IMG/VR virus record: IMGVR_UViG_3300038829_000269
Span: 522-64,521 of that record
Source of the DNA: a virus
DNA length: 64,000 nt
Direction: 5' to 3' (one strand)
Positions 1 to 57,448 of the stretch are shown here, in pieces. Positions within the stretch are counted from its first letter, which is position 1. Each line of letters starts with the position of its first letter. The notes below the pieces were generated by a model that made no database searches, was not told the DNA's origin, and saw nothing but the letters and a program-made list of their open reading frames with translations. The position numbers and the translations under genes were made by a program.

Positions 1-1
1 G

Positions 2-1396
2 ATCCAGACGCTTGGCGTCCTGTTCACCCACCGGATCGCGGCGGGCGGTCACCTGCCAACGATGATCCTGGCCCCGACCTCGGTGGTCGGAGACTGGCAC
101 GCCAAGTTCCGGCGCTTCGCCAAGATGGAGATCGCGGTCGCGGACGGGACGCCGGGCCGCCGCCTGAAGGTCTACGAGAGCAAGCCCGAGTTCCTGTGCC
201 TGAGCTACGACACGTTCATCAAGGACAACGTGAAGATCGTGCAGAACTTCCATCCCAAGGCGTTCATCCCGGACGAGGCTCAGCGGTTCACCAACCGCAA
301 GTCGAAGGCCGCCGAGAAGATCATCGAGTTCTGCGACATCGTGCAGCCGCGCTTCCGCATCCCGATCAGCGGAAGCCCCGTGTCAAACAGACCCGACGAT
401 CTCTGGCCCTTGTTGCGCGTGATCAACAAAGACCTGGCGGGCACGGCCAAGGCGTTCGAGGGGCGCTACCTCAAGCAAGAGACGAATTGGGCCATGATCA
501 AGATGATGGAGAAGAGGAACCCCGGCAAAAAGATTCCTTACAAGCCGATGATCCTGAAGTCTCTTGATCCGCGCAAGCCGGATGAGGCGCGCCTGCTCGG
601 CGAACTCAGGATGAAGATCGCGCCCTATGTTCTGCGACGCCTGAAGAAGGACGTGCTCAAGGACCTGCCGAAGAAGTTCCACGAGCGGCTGGAGATCGAG
701 TTGAGCGCCGAGGAGCGCCGCGCCTACGAGGAGCTTCAGGCTCAGTTCGCTGAGGCGATGGCCGGGGTGCTGGAGGACGACCAGGACACGGCGGCCTCCA
801 ACTTCCTCCAGTGGTTCACGCGCGCGCAGCAGATTTGCTCCAGCCTGGAGATCGTCGGGCTCGGCGATAAGTCGTCGAAGATGGATGAGTTGAAGCACTT
901 CGTTAAGGACTACGCCGACGACGAGAAGATCATCATCTTCAGCCGGTTCACTGAGATGACGAAGATCGTGTGCCGGGAGTTGAAGGCCTATCACCCTCTG
1001 CACTTGCACGGCGGCATCCCTCAGAATAAGCGCCAACCGCTGATCGACGCCTTTCAGGAAAAGGATGAGCATCGTCTTTTCGTCTCCACGCTCAAGGCGG
1101 GCGGCGTCGGCCTGACTCTGACGGCCGCGACGATCGTCGCACGCCTAGACCGCTGGGTGTCGCCCACGGCCAACGATCAGGCCGAGGACCGCGCTCACCG
1201 CATTGGGCAGCGCAATGACGTGACGGTCGTCGACTTCGTGGTCAAGGACTCGATCGAGGAGCGCATCCTGGAGATGTTGGACAAGAAGCTGAGGATGATC
1301 GCGAGCCTGATCGCGGCGGACGACGACGAAGAGGCGCAGGAGCGCAAGATCGTGCGCTCTCTCCTCCGCAAGCAGGAGATGATGAAACTGATATGA
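2..1396 (+). CDS. SNF2-family (SF2) helicase/ATPase, 5' end outside window
   Basis: Frame is open from base 2 (IQTL..., just after where Walker A would lie). Motifs LAPTSVVGDW (Ia), DEAQ (II), SGSPVSN.PDDLW (III), LRRLKKDVL..LPKK, KIIIFSRF, GGVGLTLTAA, QAEDRAHRIGQ (VI). Confidence 0.93.
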   Translation: MQTLGVLFTHRIAAGGHLPTMILAPTSVVGDWHAKFRRFAKMEIAVADGTPGRRLKVYESKPEFLCLSYDTFIKDNVKIVQNFHPKAFIPDEAQRFTNRKSKAAEKIIEFCDIVQPRFRIPISGSPVSNRPDDLWPLLRVINKDLAGTAKAFEGRYLKQETNWAMIKMMEKRNPGKKIPYKPMILKSLDPRKPDEARLLGELRMKIAPYVLRRLKKDVLKDLPKKFHERLEIELSAEERRAYEELQAQFAEAMAGVLEDDQDTAASNFLQWFTRAQQICSSLEIVGLGDKSSKMDELKHFVKDYADDEKIIIFSRFTEMTKIVCRELKAYHPLHLHGGIPQNKRQPLIDAFQEKDEHRLFVSTLKAGGVGLTLTAATIVARLDRWVSPTANDQAEDRAHRIGQRNDVTVVDFVVKDSIEERILEMLDKKLRMIASLIAADDDEEAQERKIVRSLLRKQEMMKLI

Positions 1397-6810: not shown

Positions 6811-6846
6811 TTGACAAATACCGTTAGTCTGTTATAATAACGGTAT
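6811..6846 (+). promoter_or_regulatory. sigma70-type promoter with overlapping palindromic operator, probably leaderless mRNA
   Basis: TTGACA 6811-6816, 16-nt spacer, TGn-TATAAT 6830-6838. Inverted repeat ATACCGTTA (6818-6826) / TAACGGTAT (6838-6846). ATG at 6845 is 7 nt after the -10 box, with no SD. Confidence 0.85.
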
Positions 6847-7267
6847 GAACAAACTCCCCGCCGACCAGAAGGCCTTCGCGGTGTTCTACGCCAACCGGGC
6901 GATGTTCCGCCAGTCGAACCTCGACCTTCGCGCCGACAAGAGCAAGAAGATGACGATGGCGGAGTTCCACGAGCACTACACCTACGTCGGCACCTACAAG
7001 GCGGAGTCGGCGGACGCGGTGTTCTCCCTCCTTCAGGACGGCGGCGGCGGCCTGGGCGCGGACCCGGTGAAGCCCGCGTCCTCGGCCGCCGACTCGAACG
7101 CGGCGCGCATGATGCAGGAGCTTCTGATCCGCAAGGTCGGCCACACCTCCATGTCGACGAGCGACGTGATCGTTGACTTGGCCCAGGGCGAGGTCATGGT
7201 CTGCGCCTCCTTCGGCTGGGACAAGATCGAAGTTCTCGGTCTCAATTCTCTCGCGGCGGTGGCCTAA
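6845..7267 (+). CDS. YodL-like domain protein
   Basis: Y.YVG.Y.....D.VFSLLQ ... GHTSMSTSDVIV ... VCASFGWDKI resembles the YodL (PF14191) pattern GHSxSVSDV...VDxFGF. Confidence 0.65.
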   Translation: MNKLPADQKAFAVFYANRAMFRQSNLDLRADKSKKMTMAEFHEHYTYVGTYKAESADAVFSLLQDGGGGLGADPVKPASSAADSNAARMMQELLIRKVGHTSMSTSDVIVDLAQGEVMVCASFGWDKIEVLGLNSLAAVA

Positions 7268-7268
7268 C

Positions 7269-7448
7269 ATGGACATCGGCACCCTGCTGCTGGACATCGG
7301 CGGCCTGAACAAGGAGCCCGTGGATCGCGGCCTCACGGTCTACGCGCGCGACGGGAAGACCGTCCTGTCGGTCGGCGACCACGGCGTGTTCGCCGCGATC
7401 CACCTGACCGACGATGAGAAGGCCAAGCTCCGGGAGGCCCTGAAGTGA
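7269..7448 (+). CDS. small hypothetical protein (59 aa)
   Basis: ATG 1 nt after the previous stop; GTGA overlap with the next gene. Confidence 0.6.
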   Translation: MDIGTLLLDIGGLNKEPVDRGLTVYARDGKTVLSVGDHGVFAAIHLTDDEKAKLREALK

Positions 7449-7870
7449 TCGACGCCCCGATCCAGACGGCGGACGAGGCCCTGGACTTCATCGCGGTCCA
7501 GCGCGCCATGGGCCTGACCCCGGTGATGAAGGGAACCCGGTTCTACCGCCACTCTTTCGCCGTCAGCCAGTTCGGCTCCTATCTCTATTACCTGGACGCG
7601 CGCGGGACCAAGGGCTGCTGCCAGCCCCGCAACCTGCTGGCGACCTTCGATTTTATCCACCTGGGCCTGCCGGTCCCCGGATCGCTCCCCGACCTGCCGA
7701 TCGTGCGCGAGGCGCCGGAGCGTGGCGTCGGGCTCGCGGTCGGGATCATGGGCGGCGAGCGCCAGCCCAGCCTGCTGGCGGCGGCCGAGGCCGCGCTGCG
7801 CGTGATGACCGAGGGGCCGGAGCGCGACGATCTGGAGATGGCCGTGATGGCCGAGCGGAGGATTCACTGA
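7445..7870 (+). CDS. hypothetical protein
   Basis: 141 aa, coupled at both ends. Confidence 0.6.
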   Translation: MIDAPIQTADEALDFIAVQRAMGLTPVMKGTRFYRHSFAVSQFGSYLYYLDARGTKGCCQPRNLLATFDFIHLGLPVPGSLPDLPIVREAPERGVGLAVGIMGGERQPSLLAAAEAALRVMTEGPERDDLEMAVMAERRIH

Positions 7871-8439
7871 TGGCTTTCAGCAAGGACAAGTTGAACGAGG
7901 AGTTGAAGAAACAGGTTGAGGCGCTGCTCCCCGACATGAAGAAGCTCAACTTCAATGGCGACGGGACCGGCCCCTACTGGGACCAGTTCTACCATTCCAT
8001 GTCCGGCGTCACGGTCAAGGTCACCCCGTTCAAGGAGCCGAAGTCCTGGGGCTCATACGGCGGGTTCAAGCTGCGCGTCGAGCGCAACTACCACCCGGGG
8101 CGCGGGAGCAACACCGTCCTGCTCAAGATCGACAACCTGGCGGCGGTAAAGAAGGCGATCACCGACTCGATCTCCTACCGGCGCGCGGTGAAGAAGTCGG
8201 AGCGCGAGAAGGCCAACTTCAAGGTGACGCTGGAGAAGACGATCCCGAGGCTGTTCCCCGGATACGACCGCTCGGTCTACACCGGCTCGCACGGGGACAT
8301 GCACATCTCTCTGATCAGTCACAATACAAAGCCGTCGGTGAGCATCGACATCTCGCCCTCAGGCCAGATCAGCAAGGTCGAGATCAGTTACCCGAAGGCC
8401 GGGCTCGAAGGCGTGGCCAAGCTGCTGGAGGCCTGGTGA
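7870..8439 (+). CDS. hypothetical protein
   Basis: 189 aa, TGATG coupling, GGAGG RBS. Confidence 0.7.
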   Translation: MAFSKDKLNEELKKQVEALLPDMKKLNFNGDGTGPYWDQFYHSMSGVTVKVTPFKEPKSWGSYGGFKLRVERNYHPGRGSNTVLLKIDNLAAVKKAITDSISYRRAVKKSEREKANFKVTLEKTIPRLFPGYDRSVYTGSHGDMHISLISHNTKPSVSIDISPSGQISKVEISYPKAGLEGVAKLLEAW

Positions 8440-8762
8440 TCTGGTTCATCGGCGCCGCCCTGGTCCCGGTCTCCTTCCTTCTGGGCGCCGCCTGGACTCA
8501 GCCCGACTGGACGATCCGCATCCTGTTCACGGCCATGGCCATGGTCCCGATCTGCCTGTTCCTGGAGCAGCTTCGCTTCGCGTTCCCGATCCGCTGGCGC
8601 CTGAACCCGCGCTGGGACGCCTTCCTCTGCCGCGTGGGTAGCCACCGCTGCATCCCGATCTGCGGCTCCCGCTGTTGCTGGGAGTGCCTGCGTTGCAGCC
8701 CGGAGAGCGCGGCGGTCAAGCGCCACTTTGAGCGCATGGATCGCCTGGGGATCAAGCCATGA
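8436..8762 (+). CDS. membrane protein with two N-terminal TM segments and a Cys/His-rich C-terminus
   Basis: Hydrophobic residues 1-45; C..G.H.C...C...CC.EC.RC. Confidence 0.6.
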   Translation: MIWFIGAALVPVSFLLGAAWTQPDWTIRILFTAMAMVPICLFLEQLRFAFPIRWRLNPRWDAFLCRVGSHRCIPICGSRCCWECLRCSPESAAVKRHFERMDRLGIKP

Positions 8763-8965
8763 AGACCGGCACGCCCTGGGGCAAGACGGTCGGCGCCCGG
8801 CGCCTGCTCGGGGCCGCGACCCCGGAGTTCACAGCCACGCGCAAGGTGACGTGGAAGCGCTCAGAGTTCGGGACCCCGGCCGTCGCCTGCTCGTCCTGCG
8901 GCTGGGCCAAGGGCGTGGGGCACGACCGGTGGTGCAGGTTTGTGACCAAGCGGAGAACCCAATGA
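8759..8965 (+). CDS. small Zn-finger-like hypothetical protein
   Basis: 68 aa, CSSC...H..WC; ATGA overlaps. Confidence 0.5.
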   Translation: MKTGTPWGKTVGARRLLGAATPEFTATRKVTWKRSEFGTPAVACSSCGWAKGVGHDRWCRFVTKRRTQ

Positions 8966-9624
8966 CTGCCGACATGATGATGCGGGTGAAGGACCAGGTG
9001 TTGATCGTGCTCGCCGACTACCAGTCGTGCAAACGCGACGAGATCGACGAGCGCCTGGACTTGAATTTCGAGCAGGAGGCCAACCGGATAGCGGCCGAGG
9101 TCGCCAAGCGCGTGATGAGCAACTATAAAATCCTCACCGGAAGGAAAAATGATCTCCCGTTCATGATTTTGGCCCAGGCCGCGATCGAGGTCTACGTCCT
9201 GGACCAGGCCAAAGCCAAGCACGACCCCTGGGTCCTGTCCCGGGACGAGGGCACGCGCATCCGCGCGGCCTACGACATCTCACGGATCATCGAGGCGCGC
9301 GCGGGTAAGGCCCACAAGTTCAGCGTCTGGTCCGGGATCATCTACGGGGCGACGGCCAAGAAGCTGATGCCCAAGCGCAAGGAAGAGGACCGCCATCGCG
9401 GTATTCGCATCCTGATCGCGGCGCCGTCCGCGAAGAAGGCGGTTGAGACCCTGAACGAGGTCCTGGGCTGCAACGAGAACCTGAGCAACTTCCGCGACCA
9501 CTGGTCCGGCGGCGGCACCCTCGGGAACAAGGTGGCGACCAAGATCGGCATCTGGGCCGGGGTCAAGGACGAGCAGTTCGCGCACACCGAGAAGGACTGG
9601 AAGCTGATTTGGGAGCCCAAATGA
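8962..9624 (+). CDS. hypothetical protein
   Basis: Likely start MTADMMM at 8962 (GGAG RBS, ATGA overlap); 220 aa. Confidence 0.65.
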   Translation: MTADMMMRVKDQVLIVLADYQSCKRDEIDERLDLNFEQEANRIAAEVAKRVMSNYKILTGRKNDLPFMILAQAAIEVYVLDQAKAKHDPWVLSRDEGTRIRAAYDISRIIEARAGKAHKFSVWSGIIYGATAKKLMPKRKEEDRHRGIRILIAAPSAKKAVETLNEVLGCNENLSNFRDHWSGGGTLGNKVATKIGIWAGVKDEQFAHTEKDWKLIWEPK

Positions 9625-10166
9625 AGAAGAAAACGGTGATCCTGGAGTTGAGGACGAGCCTGGAGCACGAGATCACCCGCGTCCTGGATAGCAAGGCCAC
9701 GGTCGCGGCGAACCTCCTGAACGAGGACGTTCATCTCGGAGTGCTCGGCGCCCGCTGGACCTGGTGCGGCCTGTCCAAGGTGGTCAAGGTCACGACCGGC
9801 TGCATCTTCTACGTCAACCACAACAAGGACAAGCAGGTGACGTGCAAGAAGTGCCTGGCCCGGATCAAAGAGGGTTCGCCGGTCCCGACCGTGACCAATA
9901 TCCTGGAGATCGCGGTCCAGGAGATGCGCCAGGAGCGCAAGATCAGCCAGGACATCATGACGAAGACGCACAAGCAGATCATGTCGCTCCCCATTTACAC
10001 GGTGACCGTCAGGATGAAGGCGAGCGGAAAGGGCTACTACGAGCGCGAATACGACACGCGCTACCCCGAGGCGATCTCCGGTCAGATCATGGGCATCAGC
10101 CTGAAGACCACCGGGTTCCAGGGCGTGAACGACGCCTACATCGAGGAAGCGGAGAAATCCAAGTGA
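9621..10166 (+). CDS. hypothetical protein with H..C..CxxC Zn site
   Basis: ATGA overlap; VHLG...TWCG...VTCKKCL. Confidence 0.65.
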   Translation: MKKKTVILELRTSLEHEITRVLDSKATVAANLLNEDVHLGVLGARWTWCGLSKVVKVTTGCIFYVNHNKDKQVTCKKCLARIKEGSPVPTVTNILEIAVQEMRQERKISQDIMTKTHKQIMSLPIYTVTVRMKASGKGYYEREYDTRYPEAISGQIMGISLKTTGFQGVNDAYIEEAEKSK

Positions 10167-10858
10167 GCAACAAAGACGATCTCGAAGGAGAGATGGAGTC
10201 GCACCCTGCGTTCGGGCTCGCCCACTTCAACCGCGTGACCTTCGGAGGCGGGTCGAAGCGCCAGCGCCGCCTGTTCGGCAGCAGCATCGACAGCCTTGGG
10301 GCGATCACGCTCACGATCAGCAACTGCCGCGTCCAGCACAGCCTTGGCTCCGACCACTACTACGACGACAAGGAGATCATCCAGGTCGAGATGACCGAGG
10401 CCCAGTTCGCCTCTCTGATCTCGACGCTGAACCAGGGCCAAGGCGTCCCGGTCACGATCCGACACATCCAGCACAAGCGGATGCCGGAGCTTCCCGAGTC
10501 CAAGGTCGAGGCGATCAAGATCAGGGACACGTTCCACGAGCGCCTTGAGGCGTGGAAGAAGCAGATGAACACGATCACCGATGAGGTCGACGCGATCACG
10601 TCGAAGAAGGGCGCACTCACCGTCGCGGAGAAGGAGCGGATCAAGGAGTTGACGACCAAGCTGGTCCACAGGATGCAGGACAGCAGCGGGTTCCTCCTCG
10701 ACCAATTCAACGAGAGCATGACCGGGATCGTGGCCGAGGCCAAGACCGAGGTCGAGGGGTTCATCAACAACGCGATACAGAAGACCGGGCTCAAGGCGCT
10801 CCAGGGCCAGGCCGTGAACCTGCTTGGCCTGGACACGCCGAAGAAGGACGGAGAATAG
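10163..10858 (+). CDS. conserved phage hypothetical protein (HPAFG...LFGS...EMxEAQFA...GxGVPVTI type)
   Basis: GTG start overlapping the previous TGA; globular N-half, coiled-coil C-half; motif pattern recalled from phage/plasmid hypotheticals. Confidence 0.7.
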   Translation: MSNKDDLEGEMESHPAFGLAHFNRVTFGGGSKRQRRLFGSSIDSLGAITLTISNCRVQHSLGSDHYYDDKEIIQVEMTEAQFASLISTLNQGQGVPVTIRHIQHKRMPELPESKVEAIKIRDTFHERLEAWKKQMNTITDEVDAITSKKGALTVAEKERIKELTTKLVHRMQDSSGFLLDQFNESMTGIVAEAKTEVEGFINNAIQKTGLKALQGQAVNLLGLDTPKKDGE

Positions 10859-10860
10859 CC

Positions 10861-11436
10861 ATGCGAATGAGACTCGTGATCGAAGTTCCGCTCGCGACGC
10901 CCGAGGGCCAGGACCCCGGCGACTTCCACCCCAACCTGCAATACGACACCCAGCAGGTCGACCGGACGCTGCCCCAGGACGCGATCATCATCTCCTCCGA
11001 ATACGTCACGACGCCAGAGGACATGAAGGCCACGTTCAAGAAGCTGCTGCGCCTGAAGCTGGAGGGCGGACCGCTGCGCGGGTTCAAGAGCAGTGGCTAC
11101 TACTCCAAGGGGGACGAGGACGCCCCGTTCTACTCCGAGTCCTACCTCTACAACCTGTTGGGCAAGGAGGACGCGCGCACCGTCCTCGGCTACCTGAACC
11201 ACCTGGCGAAGATGGCGGGTCTCGACCTCTATGCGATCCAGCGCGAGGTCTCGGCCGAGATCGCGGCTGAGGAGAGGGCGGAGGCCGAGCGCAAGGAGCG
11301 CGTGGCCAAGCGCCGGGCCCTGGTCGATGAGGTCGCGGCCAAGCACGGGTGGAAGCGGGACCCTAACAGGCTCCTCGGCTACCCTGACGAGCAGTGGCAG
11401 AAGATCAAGGCCGAGTTGAAGGGGGCTGGGCTCTAA
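10861..11436 (+). CDS. hypothetical protein
   Basis: 191 aa, GGAG RBS. Confidence 0.7.
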   Translation: MRMRLVIEVPLATPEGQDPGDFHPNLQYDTQQVDRTLPQDAIIISSEYVTTPEDMKATFKKLLRLKLEGGPLRGFKSSGYYSKGDEDAPFYSESYLYNLLGKEDARTVLGYLNHLAKMAGLDLYAIQREVSAEIAAEERAEAERKERVAKRRALVDEVAAKHGWKRDPNRLLGYPDEQWQKIKAELKGAGL

Positions 11437-11921
11437 TGGTCCTCCAAATCGTCGACACCTGCCCGGCCTGCGGCTCCTCGTCGTTCAACAAGAACGACAA
11501 GTGCTACTCCTGCGGGTTTAATCCGAAGAAGGCCTGCGCGTCCTGTGACTACGCGCTGGACGGGCGCGGGCGCTGCGCCCGGTGTTACAGCGCGGACCCG
11601 CAGAGCCTGGAGGCCATGAAGTGGGTGAGCATCATCTGGACCATGTGCTCGGTGCACGGGGCGATGGAGGCCGGGGGCAAGGAGACGCACTTCCACGTCT
11701 CCTGGACGACTCCGAACGCCAAGGACAAGCGGAAGAAGGACGGACACAGCGAGTGGCGCCACCGGTGCCGCGCGTGCATGGCCGTGAACAACGCCACTGG
11801 CTCGTTCGACTGGAGGCTGGCGGAGAGCGCGATCACCTATCGGGACAAGATCATGATCCCGCGCGAGGTCTACCAGCCGCTGATCGACGCGAAGCTCGCC
11901 GCGTTCAGAGATGAGTCATGA
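11436..11921 (+). CDS. multi-Zn-ribbon hypothetical protein
   Basis: TAATG coupling; CPAC, CYSC, CASC, CARC, CSVH, CRAC. Confidence 0.7.
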   Translation: MVLQIVDTCPACGSSSFNKNDKCYSCGFNPKKACASCDYALDGRGRCARCYSADPQSLEAMKWVSIIWTMCSVHGAMEAGGKETHFHVSWTTPNAKDKRKKDGHSEWRHRCRACMAVNNATGSFDWRLAESAITYRDKIMIPREVYQPLIDAKLAAFRDES

Positions 11922-12481
11922 ACATCTTCTACTCGTCGGACCACCACTTCTTCCACAAGAACATCCTCAAGTATTGCCCGCGCCCGTGGAACACGATCGA
12001 GGAGATGAACGAGGGGATGATCCAGCGCTGGAACTCGGTGGTCGGGCCCGACGACGTGGTCTACTACCTCGGGGACTTCGCGTTCGGCTCCGTCGAGAAG
12101 CAGCGCGCTATCATCGTGCGCCTCAACGGCCAGAAGATCATCGTGCGCGGCAACCACGATCGCGGGCACGAGAACCTGAAGGCGATCGGGTTTCAGGCCT
12201 CCTGCAACTCGATGGAGCGCGACGACGGCGGGCGCCGCTGGCTCCTGATCCACAACCCGGCGGACGCGGCGGGGACCGGGCACGGGAACGTGATCTGCGG
12301 ACACGTCCACCAGCACTGGGCGCGCCAGACCAACTACATGCGCCAGGGCATGGACGTGATCAACGTGGGGGTCGACGTGCGCGACTTCACGCCCAGGACT
12401 ATGGCAGAGCTTTTGGCCGCACCAGCCACACCCGACATGATAGACGCCGTTCCGGCCCGCCATCGCGGCCGAGGAGAGTAG
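11918..12481 (+). CDS. calcineurin-like metallophosphoesterase
   Basis: SDHHFFH, LGDF, GNHD, LIH.P, GHVH, INVGVD motifs. Confidence 0.92.
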   Translation: MNIFYSSDHHFFHKNILKYCPRPWNTIEEMNEGMIQRWNSVVGPDDVVYYLGDFAFGSVEKQRAIIVRLNGQKIIVRGNHDRGHENLKAIGFQASCNSMERDDGGRRWLLIHNPADAAGTGHGNVICGHVHQHWARQTNYMRQGMDVINVGVDVRDFTPRTMAELLAAPATPDMIDAVPARHRGRGE

Positions 12482-12483
12482 AG

Positions 12484-12879
12484 ATGACCACGACAGCGGA
12501 GCGTATCTTCGCACGACGTAAAGAGGACGCGATCGGCAAGGTCCAGTGGAGGCTCGCCAGCCACCACCCCGAGTCGGTCGTGAGCATGATCAAGGAGGTT
12601 GAGACCAAGCTGCACGGGTCTACCGCCCTGGTTAGGAACACGGCGATGGACGGAGTGCTCCGCGCGGCGGCCGAGGAGATCGTGAACCAGGTGCAGAAGG
12701 ACCTGGGCCTCGGCGCCACGCGGATCATCTACAAGGCCAAGAAGAGGAGCGGCGGGGGTGGCGCCGGGCGCCCGCCGGGCGTCCTGCACTGGACCCAGAA
12801 GCCCGAGAACAAGAAGCGGGTGAAGGCCGCGCTCCGCAAGGCGAACAAGGCCAAGGCCGCGAAGAAGGCGGGGGCCTGA
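12484..12879 (+). CDS. basic putative DNA-binding protein
   Basis: GAGGAG RBS; C-terminus KAKKRSGGGGAGRPPG...HWTQKPE...K/A-rich tail. Confidence 0.65.
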   Translation: MTTTAERIFARRKEDAIGKVQWRLASHHPESVVSMIKEVETKLHGSTALVRNTAMDGVLRAAAEEIVNQVQKDLGLGATRIIYKAKKRSGGGGAGRPPGVLHWTQKPENKKRVKAALRKANKAKAAKKAGA

Positions 12880-13034
12880 TGCTCGACGGCTCGCCCGCGC
12901 AGTTGGAGATCACCGAGATCATGAAGCAGGTTCCAGAGCTTCCGATGGTCACGGTCATCTCGCTGCCGGGCGGGCCGGTTCAGCGCATGTTCCTGAAGAA
13001 GCACCTCGAACTTTTGCCGTGGGAGAAAATCTGA
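12879..13034 (+). CDS. small hypothetical protein (51 aa)
   Basis: Not in the ORF track; TGATG coupling at both ends (MLDGSPAQLEITEIMKQ...PWEKI). Confidence 0.55.
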   Translation: MLDGSPAQLEITEIMKQVPELPMVTVISLPGGPVQRMFLKKHLELLPWEKI

Positions 13035-13879
13035 TGACCAGAACCTTGACGCCGCTGCCGATCGTGTCGGAAGAGATCGCGAACTCCGACGGCTACAAGA
13101 AGCTGCTGGAGTCAGTGGAGCACGATCACAAACAGTCGCCCGGCTTCCACGACTACAACGCTAAGCTCGCCTGGGTCCTGGACCGCGCGAAGCACTATGC
13201 TGAGAAGACCGGCCTGTCCCAGGTCGACATCCTGAACTCGTGGGAGAAGCTGCGCGACTACTGGTATATGAACTACTACCAGGACGCTAACCTCCCGCTG
13301 ATCGAGGGCGAGCGGGTCAAAGTGTTCGACGTGGTCGAGGACCTGCACAAGTCCGTCGCCGGGTTCGGATTCCGCTGCCCGGCCTGCGACGGCGCGTCGC
13401 GCGATCCCTACGCCTGCGACTCCGGCATCAAGATGAAGGTGACCAAGGGCAAGGGGAAGAAGGCCAAGCTCGTGGACAGCGACAAAGTCTGCGACTGGAA
13501 GGTATACGGCCTGCTCGGCGACCTGGGCAAGGGCGTCTACGTCTTCGTCAAGTCGGAGATGCGCGGCCAGCGCGTGTTCAAGCCCATCGCGTGGGAGACC
13601 GAGGAGGAGCGCGCGGCCAAGCCCAAGCTCAAGCCGCTGCCGAAGAAGGAGCCCGAGACCACCAAGCCGCCGATCTCCGAGACCTCGGCCGCCGGGTTCC
13701 AGATCAACGACGAGGTCGGCTACAAATCGTCGCTCAAGGACACCGAGTTCCAACACGTCGGCAAGATCAGGAGCGTCCACCCCGAGGGCATCCCCTCGTC
13801 GAAGGAGCCGATGCTCAAGATCGAGGGCAAGTCGGGCGTCGTCCTCGCGTCGCACTGCACGCTGCTCAAGAGAGGCTAA
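13034..13879 (+). CDS. hypothetical phage protein with Zn site and C-terminal small beta domain
   Basis: YWYMNYYQ, FRCPAC, CDWKVYGL motifs; Pro/Lys linker followed by FQINDEV...GKI beta domain. Confidence 0.72.
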   Translation: MTRTLTPLPIVSEEIANSDGYKKLLESVEHDHKQSPGFHDYNAKLAWVLDRAKHYAEKTGLSQVDILNSWEKLRDYWYMNYYQDANLPLIEGERVKVFDVVEDLHKSVAGFGFRCPACDGASRDPYACDSGIKMKVTKGKGKKAKLVDSDKVCDWKVYGLLGDLGKGVYVFVKSEMRGQRVFKPIAWETEEERAAKPKLKPLPKKEPETTKPPISETSAAGFQINDEVGYKSSLKDTEFQHVGKIRSVHPEGIPSSKEPMLKIEGKSGVVLASHCTLLKRG

Positions 13880-13883
13880 GACC

Positions 13884-14366
13884 ATGGCGACCAAGACCGG
13901 GACTCCGATGTGCCCGAAGTGCGTGAAGACGATGAAGGAGAACAAGGACTGGTATCAGTGCGACTACCACATCGTGGCTGGCGACAGCGGCGAGTGCCTG
14001 ACCCATCCGGTGATCACCAACCCGCGCGTCGTCCGCACGCTCAAGACGCTGCGCGCCTGGTCCTTGGACCCGGCGGGCACCAAGATGACCGTCGGCTCCC
14101 CGACCTACGGGATGTCCAAGGTCGTGATGCACACGGGCGGCGGCCATATCCACGAGCGCAACGCCTACCTGAGCCTCTTCGACTACGAGAGGCCGTTCGT
14201 CGATCTGCTGGTCGAACTCGGATACGTCTCCCGGCACAAGGGGACGCGCACGCCCGAGGAGACGACGCCCACGACCCTGACCGTGAACAAGTCTGGGGAC
14301 GAACTGATCCGGCAGAGCTTGCTCTTGGCCGAGGTCAGAAACGACAAGAGCCCGTTGACCCCGTGA
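13884..14366 (+). CDS. hypothetical protein (N-terminal Zn ribbon, possible winged-helix C-terminus)
   Basis: CPKC...WYQCDYH; LVELGYVS...LTVN.SG. Confidence 0.62.
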   Translation: MATKTGTPMCPKCVKTMKENKDWYQCDYHIVAGDSGECLTHPVITNPRVVRTLKTLRAWSLDPAGTKMTVGSPTYGMSKVVMHTGGGHIHERNAYLSLFDYERPFVDLLVELGYVSRHKGTRTPEETTPTTLTVNKSGDELIRQSLLLAEVRNDKSPLTP

Positions 14367-14402
14367 GCTAATTTGTAGAATCTTTGTCAAGAGGTGATGA
14401 CC

Positions 14403-15170
14403 ATGGGACTTTTCGACTTCTGGAAGCGACGGCGCGAGGGCTCCGAACGCGCGGGCCTGCTCAGCAGCCCGGCTCAGGGGGACAAGAACCGCTACCTGGC
14501 GAGCACCGCCGGGAGCAAGGGGCTCATGGCTCTGCGCGTCAGCGGCTTCGACCTGCTGACCGGCGCCCAGCACCCGCTGGTCCACGCCCGGTTCATCGGG
14601 CGCCGGGGCCCGGACGGCCAGATCGAGTTCCGGCAGGCGACGGCGGTCCAGGCCCGCGCCTGGGCCTTGTCGATCAACGCCCTGGAGAAGGTCGCGGGCC
14701 CATTCAGGAAGACCGTGCTCAAGAGCGGCGGGACCATCGTGGTGTCGGCCGACGTGAACGTGCAGTCGGACGCCGGGTTCATGGGCCGGGTCCGCGCCCT
14801 GATCGACAGCCTGGTCCAGCGCTACTTCACGCGCTCGACCAAGGTCGAGAACGCGATCGACACCGTGGAGCAGAAGCTCCGGGCGCCGGAGATGGGCGAG
14901 GAGGATCGTGTGATCCCCGCCTACTCGATGGGTAACCTATTCCAGGGCCGCTATCACGGGAAGGACCCGCAGACCGGGCGCATGACCCTGTTCAATGAGC
15001 AATCGTTCGCCGTCGAGATCAGGGGCGTGGACTCCGATGTCCTGGACGCGGTGGCCGACTCGATCCGCTCCTCGTTCAACCAGTATGCCGTGCTCGTGAT
15101 CAACGACAATGAGGGGCAGGTCTACCTGATCGAGCAGGATCAGCAGAAGGAAGCACCGGCCCAGGGATGA
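14403..15170 (+). CDS. hypothetical protein with C-terminal DUF3574/SAM-lyase-like motif
   Basis: GAGGTG RBS; G.Y.G...FNEQSFAVEI...VA..I...FNQYAVLV. Confidence 0.6.
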   Translation: MGLFDFWKRRREGSERAGLLSSPAQGDKNRYLASTAGSKGLMALRVSGFDLLTGAQHPLVHARFIGRRGPDGQIEFRQATAVQARAWALSINALEKVAGPFRKTVLKSGGTIVVSADVNVQSDAGFMGRVRALIDSLVQRYFTRSTKVENAIDTVEQKLRAPEMGEEDRVIPAYSMGNLFQGRYHGKDPQTGRMTLFNEQSFAVEIRGVDSDVLDAVADSIRSSFNQYAVLVINDNEGQVYLIEQDQQKEAPAQG

Positions 15171-15277
15171 GCATGAGCGCAGGGACGTATCAGGCGGTTC
15201 GCAAGATCATCGCCAGGATCAAGAAGCACGGGGCGAAGCGACCCTGGTTCGGTGAATCAAAATTTGGAGGAAAGCCT

Positions 15278-15577
15278 ATGCAGACCACGACCAAACCCAT
15301 CAGCCAGGCTGAGATGGCCCGGCACGCCGCGAAGCTCGATCTCGCCTATCGCGAAGAGTTCGACGCCAAGATCAAGGAGCGCAAGGAACTCGGCTTCACG
15401 ATCAACGACATGTCGATCCTCACCGGCTGGACGAAGACCTACTTCTTCCGGCTGATCAAGGACAAGCGCATCCCGAAGCCGGACCGGCACGGCAAGAACC
15501 ACACGCTGCGCTGGCCCGAGGATCGCGCGCGCGTCGTGATCGCGTTCTATCAGCAGCAGCAGGGGAAGTTCTCCTGA
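15278..15577 (+). CDS. AlpA/excisionase-like HTH DNA-binding protein (in-frame upstream ATG at 15167 also possible)
   Basis: GGAGG RBS before 15278; FTINDMSILTGWTKTYFFRLIKDKRIPKP...LRW matches the AlpA-type winged HTH. Confidence 0.72.
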   Translation: MQTTTKPISQAEMARHAAKLDLAYREEFDAKIKERKELGFTINDMSILTGWTKTYFFRLIKDKRIPKPDRHGKNHTLRWPEDRARVVIAFYQQQQGKFS

Positions 15578-15580
15578 TTC

Positions 15581-15589
15581 TGGTATAAT
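15581..15589 (+). promoter_or_regulatory. extended -10 promoter (TGgTATAAT)
   Basis: Perfect TATAAT at 15584-15589 with TG at 15581, in a high-GC genome; no clear -35. Confidence 0.5.
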
Positions 15590-15593
15590 CTGC

Positions 15594-15682
15594 TTCCTCA
15601 TCGGCCCGGGTTGCTCCCTGCGATCTCGTGACCAAAAGTGAGGAAAAAGGCCTCGATCGACGATGATCGAGGCCTTCGTTTT
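15594..15682 (+). ncRNA. candidate small RNA (about 90 nt)
   Basis: Lies between the extended -10 and a terminator; TTCCTCA/TGAGGAA closes a 5' stem; no ORF. Confidence 0.3.
15644..15682. terminator. probably bidirectional intrinsic terminator
   Basis: 12-bp perfect stem AAGGCCTCGATC (15647-15658) / GATCGAGGCCTT (15665-15676); A-run before, CGTTTT after. Confidence 0.7.
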
Positions 15683-15760
15683 GCCACCTAGCCCATCGTA
15701 AACCTGTCAAGTAAAAAGAAAGTAAAAAATTTTCTCGACGAGGAATTGGGTTGAGCATGT

Positions 15761-15840
15761 CGAAAACAGCCCGTTTTCGGTCATTCTGAAAATGGTCATC
15801 TGTTATACTTGTGGTAGATGTTCATACTACAGTATCAACA
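15761..15840 (+). promoter_or_regulatory. promoter/operator region of the histone gene
   Basis: AT-rich island; TGtTATACT at 15801-15809; inverted repeats CGAAAAC-N5-GTTTTCG (15761-15779) and ATACT-ac-AGTAT (15824-15835); direct repeat GGTCAT x2. Confidence 0.55.
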
Positions 15841-15850
15841 GGAGGACAGA

Positions 15851-16075
15851 ATGGCTCGACTACTCTACGTTCAGAAATCCAAGGTCCGGCGGTTCATCAA
15901 CGAGCGCGGGATGAAGGTGTCGAAGTCCTACATCGACGCGCTCGACCGCGAGGTGATGATCCTCATGGAGAAGCACCTGCGGATCGCGAAGGCCGACCGA
16001 CGCAAGACCGTGATGGTCGTGGACATCGACCTGCCCGCCAAGATCGCGAGCCTGTCTCGCGATCTCAAGAGGTAG
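15851..16075 (+). CDS. bacterial-type histone-fold protein (Bd0055/HBb-like), 74 aa
   Basis: AGGAGG RBS. MARLLYVQKSKVRRFINERGMKVSKSYIDALDREVMILMEKHLRIAKADRRKTVMVVDI: alpha1 (SKVRRFI), L1 (GMKVS), short alpha2, L2 RKTV with RD clamp (RKTVxxxD). Confidence 0.88.
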   Translation: MARLLYVQKSKVRRFINERGMKVSKSYIDALDREVMILMEKHLRIAKADRRKTVMVVDIDLPAKIASLSRDLKR

Positions 16076-16078
16076 CCC

Positions 16079-16750
16079 ATGGGTGCTGACAAGGTCTATG
16101 CCTGGGAGCATCGTCAGTTCAAGTGGCACTACGCGGTGAAGATCGCGTATGAGCACCGGCGCCGCGTGGCCGTCGACCTGGCCAAGCGCTTCGGGATCAA
16201 GGACCTGCGCGTCGACCTGGACACGCGCGGCGGCGGCCGGGCGTTCGTCATGCAGCGGCGGATCAGGCTCCCGTCCTGGAGGCATAGCTGCTCTCTCGGC
16301 CTGATCCTGCACGAGATCGCGCACGTCTACGACTGGATTCACCTGGAGGGGAACGGGCACCGCGCGACCTTCAAGAAGTGCATGATCAAGCTCGCGATTG
16401 AGACCAGGGCTATGCGCTACCTGCCGCCGATCTTCGCCCAGATCAGGGCGGAGGAGGCCGCGCGCTTCGCCCAGGTCAGGAAGGGCCACGTCCGGGCCCA
16501 GAAGGCCCAGGCCGCCGCGCAGAGGGCCGTGGACAGGCGCCTGGCGCTCAAGGAGCGGAAGAAGACACCGGAGTGGCGCCTGGAGCGCGCGCGGGCCAGG
16601 GTCAAGGCCCTGGGCACCAGGATCAAGCGGTTGCAGACCGCCCAGCGCAAGGCGGAGCGCCAGGCCCGGGGTCTGGAGCGCGTGGTGGCCCGTCGTGTAT
16701 CAGAATCGGCGGGAAGTGATACGCTCGCGGTCGAAGTGTCTCACGCCTGA
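16079..16750 (+). CDS. SprT-like zinc metalloprotease with long basic C-terminal helix
   Basis: GGRA....RIRL...LILHEIAH...GH...FK (HExxH plus distal His); Arg/Lys/Ala-rich helical tail. Confidence 0.75.
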   Translation: MGADKVYAWEHRQFKWHYAVKIAYEHRRRVAVDLAKRFGIKDLRVDLDTRGGGRAFVMQRRIRLPSWRHSCSLGLILHEIAHVYDWIHLEGNGHRATFKKCMIKLAIETRAMRYLPPIFAQIRAEEAARFAQVRKGHVRAQKAQAAAQRAVDRRLALKERKKTPEWRLERARARVKALGTRIKRLQTAQRKAERQARGLERVVARRVSESAGSDTLAVEVSHA

Positions 16751-16751
16751 T

Positions 16752-16820
16752 ACAAAAGAAAACCCGCCCAGTGTGCCCCCGGGTCGATCGACCGCGAGTC
16801 CGGGGCGCAGGGCGGGTGTG
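16752..16820 (-). terminator. long GC stem-loop terminator at the convergence of the two gene blocks
   Basis: ACCCGCCC (16762-16769) / GGGCGGGT (16810-16817) with inner stems, followed on the - strand by TTTTCTTTT. Confidence 0.75.
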
Positions 16821-16828
16821 TTGCCCAG

Positions 16829-16857
16829 AGGATAGCAGGTCGTCAGCAGGAGGTCAA
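16829..16857 (-). promoter_or_regulatory. putative sigma70 promoter pointing into the stem-loop
   Basis: - strand TTGACC-N17-TATCCT with extended TG. Confidence 0.45.
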
Positions 16858-56569: not shown

Positions 56570-57448
56570 TTAGAAGGGCACGAACGTCGGCTTGCCCGTG
56601 ACGTTGATGCGGCTGACGGCGCGGGGGTTGACGACGGCGATGCCCAACTCTTCGTAGACGACCCAGCCCAGGCGCAGGCGCTCGGGCTTGTCCGCCGGGA
56701 TCACGTTCACGTCCTGCCGGATCGGCATGACGCCCGTGAACTCGGGCTCGGCGATGACCCAGATCGTGCCGCGCGGCACGACCTTCGAGACGAGGATGTC
56801 CAGGGTCCAGAGATGGCCGACGAGGCCGGTCTGGAGGACTTCCCGCTGCGTGACCGGATCGAACTGGTCGCGGCCGAACTTCATGAGGTCGGAATACTCG
56901 CTGAAGTTCATGACGAACTTCGCGGGCACCAGGTCCCACTTGCCGACTTCGGCCAGACCGCTGACGAGCGCGTCGCGCGTCAACTGATTCGCGACGGTCG
57001 TCTCCGGGTTCAGCAGGTTCGAGGAGCGGTCGATGGCGTTGAAGACGTTGCGGTCCTCCTCGGCCATCAGATCGAGCTTCGCGCGCTGCTGCGCGCGGTC
57101 GATCAGGTTGTAGCGGCGCTCCTTGACCTGAGAAAAGCGCACCTGGGGATACGAGATGATTTCCCAAGTGCCGACGGTGATCCGCTCGCCTTCCACGATC
57201 GTGTCCGGCGCGCTTCCGCGCTTGCCGATCGTGATGACGGGGATTTTCACGTCCTTGTCGTAGACCGGCAGGGCGCCCTGAGGCAGAGGATCGACGACCA
57301 GGAGCTTGCGGCCGATGCCCTGGTAATCGAGCGTGAGCCGGATCGGGTTGGCCATCGAGGACGCGAGGGCCATGCGACCGGCCTCCGTCTTCAACGCCTC
57401 TTCGATCAGGAACTCTTTCTGCTCGGGCGTCATCGCTTGTGCGTTCAT
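56570..57448 (-). CDS. major capsid protein (HK97 fold)
   Basis: 292 aa; LA.SMANPIR..LDYQGIGRKLLVVD.LPQGA.PVYDKD, A..D.MAEED..VF, G.LW..DI.VS..VP.G, GWV.YE..G..V.NPRAV. Confidence 0.88.
   Translation of the reverse strand: MNAQAMTPEQKEFLIEEALKTEAGRMALASSMANPIRLTLDYQGIGRKLLVVDPLPQGALPVYDKDVKIPVITIGKRGSAPDTIVEGERITVGTWEIISYPQVRFSQVKERRYNLIDRAQQRAKLDLMAEEDRNVFNAIDRSSNLLNPETTVANQLTRDALVSGLAEVGKWDLVPAKFVMNFSEYSDLMKFGRDQFDPVTQREVLQTGLVGHLWTLDILVSKVVPRGTIWVIAEPEFTGVMPIRQDVNVIPADKPERLRLGWVVYEELGIAVVNPRAVSRINVTGKPTFVPF

Follow-up and report, generated by a model that had tools for sequence, protein, structure and literature searches.

Why would a tailed phage encode a histone of bacterial type? The question is raised by a small gene in the window, i.e., the 64,000-nucleotide stretch of viral DNA that we analyzed (positions 522 to 64,521 of the IMG/VR record IMGVR_UViG_3300038829_000269). 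A preliminary description of this DNA had reported a 74-residue basic ORF, and the ORF was confirmed as follows:

15851..16075, + strand: alpha3-type histone-fold gene, 74 aa (alpha1 9-18, alpha2 25-48, L2 RKTV, alpha3 plus C-terminal helix 57-72)

The translation agrees with the sequence quoted earlier. The protein has a pI of 10.6, with 19 Lys and Arg residues against 9 Asp and Glu, and the GC3 of the gene is 0.89, i.e., the codon bias of its genome. An 85-residue ORF called mechanically from position 15818 was rejected as the gene, since the homologues start at the Met of MAR/MAK. The identical protein is present in further contigs and a contig from a separate study spans the locus, so that the gene is no assembly artefact. 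We regard it as virtually certain that the histone-fold gene is real. Atlas feature matches pointed to two mostly viral clusters (0.93 and 0.91), which were taken as leads only.

The carrier is, judging from its gene content, a contractile-tailed phage of about 170 kb (Caudoviricetes) related to Bacillus phage G. The IMG/VR record is 139 kb long and the full contig, from groundwater, 170 kb; PHROG matches in the record include a major head protein, tail sheath, baseplate and endolysin. The major head protein (56570-57433, - strand) is 62% identical to gp27 of Bacillus jumbo phage G, and the phage studied here has a GC content of 65%. Among relatives whose other genes diverge far more, the head protein is 96-99% identical. 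The "provirus" label of IMG/VR is unsupported, as the trimmed left flank (about 8 of 20 kb examined) holds only unannotated ORFs and no sign of host DNA. Neither the phage histone nor the head protein was found in the GTDB genomes scanned, and there was no histone match among 50,697 cultured phage records. A gene of the HU/IHF family was not found in the record, which is incomplete. An SNF2-family helicase gene that begins before the window occupies positions 1-1396 (+ strand); Liu et al. (PMC13681535) give a statistical link between SNF2 and viral histones only for Megaviricetes. Beyond the window, the same record carries a gene for a ThiF/E1-like enzyme (L123:8203-8943, - strand) beside SbcC-like, RuvC and ThyX genes.

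The preliminary description had put forward an almost gapless alignment with the Bdellovibrio histone Bd0055 (HBb) and an alpha2 of the same length. A PDB sequence search retrieved HBb/Bd0055 (E 5.5e-6), HTkC (E 1.1e-5) and HLp (E 0.02). The Bd0055 alignment spans 59 residues with two one-residue gaps, in line with that description, and alpha2 aligns without gaps with those of HBb, HLp and HTkC, having the short form of alpha3 histones, in which this helix is 4-5 residues shorter than in nucleosomal histones. Profile-profile comparison with HBb-like histones yielded 99% probability and an E-value of 7.9e-18. The window protein had no match in Pfam or PHROGs, and PF00808 matched one of 21 homologues (E 0.005). 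The AlphaFold2 model (pLDDT 88) contains helices at residues 9-18, 25-48 and 57-72, which is the three-helix fold of alpha3 histones. A fold comparison with Bd0055, as had been proposed, returned HBb as the best Foldseek match (rmsd 1.5 Å over 60 columns, E 4.8e-3); no E-value went down to 0.001, as is usual for so short a chain. Foldseek rmsd values were 1.0-1.5 Å against HBb, HLp and HTkC vs 2.3-2.9 Å against HPhA and HMf. Short helical folds give only middling Z-scores, and those of VIA-align were 7.2 for HLp, 7.1 for HBb and 6.9 for HTkC (rmsd 1.2-1.5 Å over 56-57 residues) and at most 5.5 for nucleosomal histones. The third helix was modeled as a single helix at 57-72 with pLDDT down to about 70, and most homologues have Pro62; this segment may be either a short alpha3 (3-4 residues in alpha3 histones) followed by a tail helix or one long helix.

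A dimer model had also been proposed. We modeled four copies of the protein, and the homo-oligomer scored 0.73, the best control reaching 0.00; among proteins of solved structure, 20 of 30 same-chain pairs and one of 23 single chains reach the mark used for this score. The runs share at least 63% of contacts, with a partner pLDDT of at least 73. The confident contacts are those of the histone handshake inside one dimer and involve residues 4-59, with residues 60-74 not named among them, which speaks neither for nor against a tetramer; this interface may stem from the model's memory of solved HBb dimers. The protein thus modeled would form a handshake homodimer.

About 23 distinct homologues of 69-77 residues were found. 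Neighbor genes are shared with the window in 13 of the 14 lineages examined by contig (lineage L010 has none), and in most of these lineages the histone gene lies at the end of the lysis/tail block. Comparison with nine relatives gave dN/dS values of 0.21-0.57, below 1 in core and tail alike; the histone is under purifying selection, its tail helix included. The C-terminal extension that had been pointed out earlier is therefore real and conserved, forming a helix in all homologues of the phage clade. In a phylogeny against cellular histones, another of the checks suggested at the outset, the phage proteins formed a separate clade on one side of a long supported branch (97/96; 96/93 with the tail removed), with no close cellular neighbor among the sequences sampled; these trees have few columns, and HBb-like sequences dominate the cellular sample. 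The gene is hence an old resident of these phages and not a recent capture.

A 43%-GC relative (IMG/VR 3300032053_000150) has, in the corresponding place but on the late strand, a strongly diverged 69-residue histone-like ORF without RxTxxxxD (L127:4594-4803, - strand). It matches the histone profile with an E-value of 3e-5, in alpha1-alpha2 only, and has its own AT-rich upstream region and RBS. No homologue was found in the record of one 34%-GC relative, which is 77% complete; some of the more distant phages may therefore lack the gene.

The RKTV motif and R-D clamp noticed earlier are both present: L2 reads RKTV and the D49-R51-D58 clamp is intact. R51 and D58 occur together in 18 homologues, including the window protein, and five others combine M, V or C at position 51 with H at position 58. 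The switch took place on three separate branches without any unmatched change, a count that could be inflated by exchange of gene pieces between phages. This paired change provides independent support for the clamp contact. Ten DNA-contact residues have been defined in HBb (10.1101/2023.02.26.530074). Five are identical in the phage histone (S9, K10, S24, K52 and T53), the counterparts of three (K12, T8 and N22) are basic, and two (K16 and R57) are lost; R57, a major DNA contact of HBb, is V or I throughout the phage clade. The basic residues of alpha1 are K11 and R13, and the RKTxxxxD motif comprises R51, K52, T53 and D58. By all these residue-level signs, the phage histone would work like HBb. 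The His of archaeal tetramers is absent, position 48 being A, Q or S, and the Arg (R-6) and Asn (R-2) of face-to-face histones are replaced by I45 and D49 in the window protein and never occur in 21 homologues. In the tail, residues L61, I65, L68, R70 and R74 show little or no variation across 21 homologues, and the modeled helix may offer a basic, amphipathic surface to DNA or to a partner.

The control region of the gene comprises the following elements:

15647..15676, + strand: terminator-like hairpin followed by a T-rich tail, which sets the histone unit apart from the early block upstream of it (z of the region -4.5; supported by compensatory pairs in 6 relatives)
15690..15839, no strand assigned: AT-rich control island with an invariant TGTCAAG at 15705-15711 (minus-strand TTGACA) and a conserved CGACG element
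15801..15809, + strand: extended -10 element TG-t-TATACT of host sigma70 type, without a -35 in the window lineage, conserved in relatives
15840..15845, + strand: Shine-Dalgarno sequence AGGAGG, 5 nt 5' of the ATG; relatives have GGAGG-type sites upstream

Both the AGGAGG RBS and the AT-rich island with TGtTATACT had been noted before and were located here. Among the other called genes of the 139-kb record, only five have AGGAGG no more than 18 nt from their start. Of all 150-bp segments in the record, the one that contains the -10 element has the lowest GC content (0.39 vs 0.65), and a generic promoter scan missed the promoter because this copy has no -35. Three extended -10 sites of this type occur in the record, against 0.45 expected under an order-2 Markov model, at positions 6830, 15581 and 15801, every one intergenic and on the + strand. 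That at 6830 belongs to a full TTGACA-17-TATAAT promoter (6811-6838) that heads the early block. About 11 lineages keep the sequence TCTG(T/C)TA(T/C)A(C/A)T upstream of the histone gene, and a full TTGACA is found 17 nt upstream in three of them. In lineages L009, L010 and L094, the gene has no promoter of its own. The control island of L002, L006 and L097 has two perfect DnaA boxes 99 nt apart, at distances of about 68 and 167 nt from the start of the histone gene. Near matches occur in L018 and L019, and the boxes are lost in the window lineage. One box covers the -35 position of the histone promoter; the boxes could mark a DnaA-dependent origin or control by DnaA.

The early block (6811-15690) is inverted in the window lineage and in L008, L015 and L118, relative to most relatives (L002, L006, L013, L014, L016, L097 and L099). 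The junctions showed no evident inverted repeat on their flanks, and the joints shown in four runs included no strand-changing joint of the block; contigs drop rare variants. In the non-inverted relatives, the histone promoter stands back to back with the early promoter. This layout and the promoter motif common to the early block suggest that the histone gene is transcribed early, by the host polymerase. Owing to the inversion only, a small RNA and an HTH gene adjoin the histone gene in the window. In most relatives, both are found about 7 kb from the histone gene and on the opposite strand, and a module that would unite them with the histone and protease genes was therefore rejected. The small-RNA-like unit (15581-15685, + strand) consists of an extended -10, a hairpin of 50-60 nt with the invariant apical motif GCTCCCTGCG, and a terminator with compensatory pairs. 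It was found in all six phages compared, i.e., in the window and at L002:165-278, L014:2405-2524, L097:3650-3766, L099:3420-3538 and L102:1225-1340 (all - strand). Rfam had no match for it, and it looks like an undescribed phage sRNA. In the same block, the early gene at 14394-15170 (+ strand) resembles S-adenosylmethionine lyase in its C-terminal part, although the match is weak and under the cut-off (PF23780, E 0.003); its product is a possible anti-restriction protein.

The gene is followed by that of a putative protease:

16079..16750, + strand: HExxH SprT-like/minigluzincin-type metalloprotease, 3 nt after the histone stop (4-nt overlap in most relatives)
16762..16818, no strand assigned: long hairpin with a minus-strand U-rich tail, separating the histone and protease genes from the lysis/tail genes that converge on them (z -2.5; also present in L008)

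HExxH and one further His are invariant in the protease homologues, and the protein has a long basic helical hairpin. PF10263 matched weakly in all seven homologues, with a best E-value of 7.8e-4, under the cut-off. Fold matches comprised abylysin, selecase, Wss1 and SPRTN, none at E<=0.001; the best were archaeal minigluzincins, all with E>0.01. The protease gene lies downstream of the histone gene in 12 of 14 lineages, mostly with a stop/start overlap, and the genes upstream vary. Two lineages (L010 and L094/L102) have the histone gene with no protease nearby, one of them being a 106-kb record without a protease match. An HNH_3 endonuclease gene is inserted between the two genes in L002 (8252-8860). 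Just upstream of the 16762-16818 hairpin, a promoter-like TTGACC-17-TATCCT with TG (16829-16857, - strand) may yield a second short RNA.

Regarding the role of the histone, we lean toward an early, homodimeric, sequence-blind protein that bends or coats intracellular phage DNA, which might also protect this DNA from host nucleases. Host sigma70 RNA polymerase would transcribe the gene early from its own insulated promoter, which together with the strong RBS probably makes the protein abundant. The handshake homodimer would bind the DNA backbone through alpha1, L1 and L2, with no sequence specificity, as HBb does. Bound histone would then bend or coat the DNA and so organize, compact and partly shield its target, presumably the phage genome inside the cell at the stage of early transcription and of replication. 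Phage-supplied nucleoid proteins have precedents in HU-like ones such as TF1 of SPO1. The lack of an HU/IHF family gene in the incomplete record is in favor of this role; against it count the loss of R57, the three lineages in which the gene has no promoter of its own, the reliance on motifs for host and timing, the missing Pfam and PHROG matches and the 34%-GC record without a homologue. Our literature search found no functional experiment on phage histones of this bacterial type.

The conserved tail raises another possibility, a DNA-bridging tetramer in which the C-terminal helix joins two dimers and cross-links duplexes, either in a replication compartment or in the host nucleoid. Such tetramers are predicted for the phage histones of Schwab et al. 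and for the tail-to-tail class of Liu et al. The best viral fold match, A0A516LIY4, is one of the former, the spacing of R13/G20/R33/K52 equals that of K19/G26/R39/K58 in phage histones, and tail residues L61, I65, L68, R70 and R74 are conserved, with a tail dN/dS as low as that of the core. However, the helix extends only about 14 residues past the end of HBb with no long linker after alpha3, RxTxxxxD is present here and absent from phage histones, K or R at position 33 also occurs in HBb-like histones, and Liu et al. predict dimers for the Bd0055-like class. We consider bridging unlikely, if well worth bearing in mind. It is slightly less credible that the protein serves host takeover, by heterodimerizing with or outcompeting an essential host histone or by condensing the host chromosome to shut down its genes. 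There is no indication of a histone in the host. The phage proteins make up a single clade on a long branch (96/93 on the core alone) with no close cellular neighbor sampled, and their DNA-binding residues are kept, not degraded as would be expected of a dominant-negative mimic. These points have to be set against a promoter of early type, the probable essentiality of HBb (PMC10627809) and the residues L31, V35, L38 and I59, which match L31, I35, L38 and I59 of HBb and make a heterodimer sterically plausible. Poisoning of an essential host histone, an option put forward in the preliminary description, gained no positive evidence, the lineage being an old one in phages with no recent capture from a host.

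Yeast Wss1 degrades histones (10.1101/2019.12.13.876110), and by analogy a DNA-activated SprT/Wss1-like protease might remove the histone, or host DNA-binding proteins, before replication or packaging. In favor of this, the neighboring gene keeps its place downstream of the histone gene in 12 of 14 lineages, where its start mostly overlaps the histone stop and the upstream genes vary, and its product has the invariant HExxH and His and weak fold matches to Wss1 and SPRTN. Nevertheless, such removal is improbable: two lineages (L010 and L094/L102) have no protease nearby, archaeal minigluzincins give the best fold matches, and these are all at E>0.01, phages commonly carry SprT-like genes, and an enzyme and its substrate made from one early promoter would need a timer. 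As these phages are largely syntenic, the linkage may also reflect plain inheritance. Equally doubtful is an elaboration of the same idea, i.e., a two-gene unit in which the early histone would coat phage DNA as a shield against host nucleases or silencing and a translationally coupled SPRTN/Wss1-type protease would strip it, a parallel in a prokaryotic virus to the action of Wss1 on histones, the histone representing an evolutionary link between HBb-type dimers and tetramerizing phage histones. A virion core protein that condenses packaged DNA, like the histones of Marseillevirus, is very improbable. Tailed-phage motors package naked DNA, and in the window and close relatives the histone gene runs opposite to the structural genes, has a sigma70-type promoter and is insulated by hairpins. 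This outweighs the small size, basic charge and predicted DNA binding of the protein, the location of its gene next to the end of the structural block, and the diverged histone-like gene that a distant relative has in the same place on the late strand. Early coating or bending of intracellular phage DNA thus remains the reading that we prefer.

If phage DNA is shown to be chromatinized, histone-based genome organization or protection would extend to tailed phages. The clade is a good test case, as the protein is small, well folded and near enough to HBb for residue-level predictions. About 23 natural variants exist, clamp-switch pairs among them, the promoter is defined, the extra helix is conserved and the neighboring protease is a candidate partner.

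Phage histones of this class were catalogued computationally in 2024-2025, so that the discovery value is moderate. The preliminary description had overrated their novelty, as Liu et al. (2025; PMC13681535) already report 84 bacterial-like histone-fold proteins in IMG/VR, among them a Bd0055-like viral class, BBVHFP, predicted to form dimers and to have a C-terminal helix. Compared by description, the window protein shares with that class a Caudoviricetes origin, the Bd0055-like fold, a C-terminus that is a helix and not a loop, and the IMG/VR source, which holds the window record and three homologue records; the handshake contacts modeled here would suit the dimer predicted for the class, but a tetramer is also conceivable. 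It fits BBVHFP by this published description and is hence not new in kind. The available text of Liu et al. differs from the present work in containing no analysis of genome context, promoter, selection or neighbors.

HBb/Bd0055 of Bdellovibrio bacteriovorus (PDB 8FVX, 8CMP and 9EZZ; PMC10627809; 10.1101/2023.02.26.530074) is similar in its core (about 45% identity, rmsd 1.0-1.5 Å), the short alpha2, the D49-R51-D58 clamp, K52-T53, the S-K that opens alpha1 and the lack of His48. The phage protein differs in being viral, in an L1 that is one residue shorter (as in HLp), in the changes of R57 to V/I and N22 to K/R, in the invariant D32 and K41 and near-invariant R33, E34 and R50 of its clade, and in an alpha3 extended into a 16-residue helix. 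With HBb-type bacterial dimers in general it shares RKTxxxxD, a basic alpha1 and the missing face-to-face Arg/Asn, but it is phage-encoded and its sequence clade is separate from the HBb cluster (97/96 and 96/93). The face-to-face histones HLp (9QT0) and HTkC (9F2C) resemble it in core fold (Z about 7, rmsd 1.2-1.3 Å) and, for HLp, in L1 length, whereas their tetramer residues Arg R-6 and Asn R-2 are missing in the phage clade. Unlike nucleosomal archaeal histones (HMf), the phage protein has a short alpha2 and no four-helix-bundle His.

The classes of Schwab et al. (2024; PMC11390915) include "bacterial dimer" histones and "phage" histones, the second with A0A2E7QIQ9 and A0A516LIY4. A0A516LIY4, a "Phage histone" in their data, is the best viral fold match of our protein (E 2.1e-3, rmsd 1.9 Å, 32% identity). 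Like the phage histones of Schwab et al. and the tail-to-tail class of Liu et al., the protein combines an alpha3 fold with a C-terminal helix and is encoded by tailed phages. The signature of the former (K, G, R, K at +7, +13 and +19) corresponds to R13, G20, R33 and K52 here, a likeness that is not fully diagnostic, as HBb has K33. Those phage histones differ in having no RxTxxxxD and in a longer, linker-separated helical domain (A0A516LIY4 has 139 residues), and identity to A0A516LIY4 is 32%, vs 45% to HBb. The phage clade bridges bacterial dimers, whose RKTxxxxD it carries, and the phage histones of Schwab et al., whose C-terminal helix and signature spacing it shares. By the motifs that define these groups, it is outside the cellular HBb cluster, the face-to-face histones and the Schwab phage histones. 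To what was known of this class, our analysis adds the clade, its synteny, the early promoter, selection on the tail helix, co-variation of the clamp and linkage to the protease gene.
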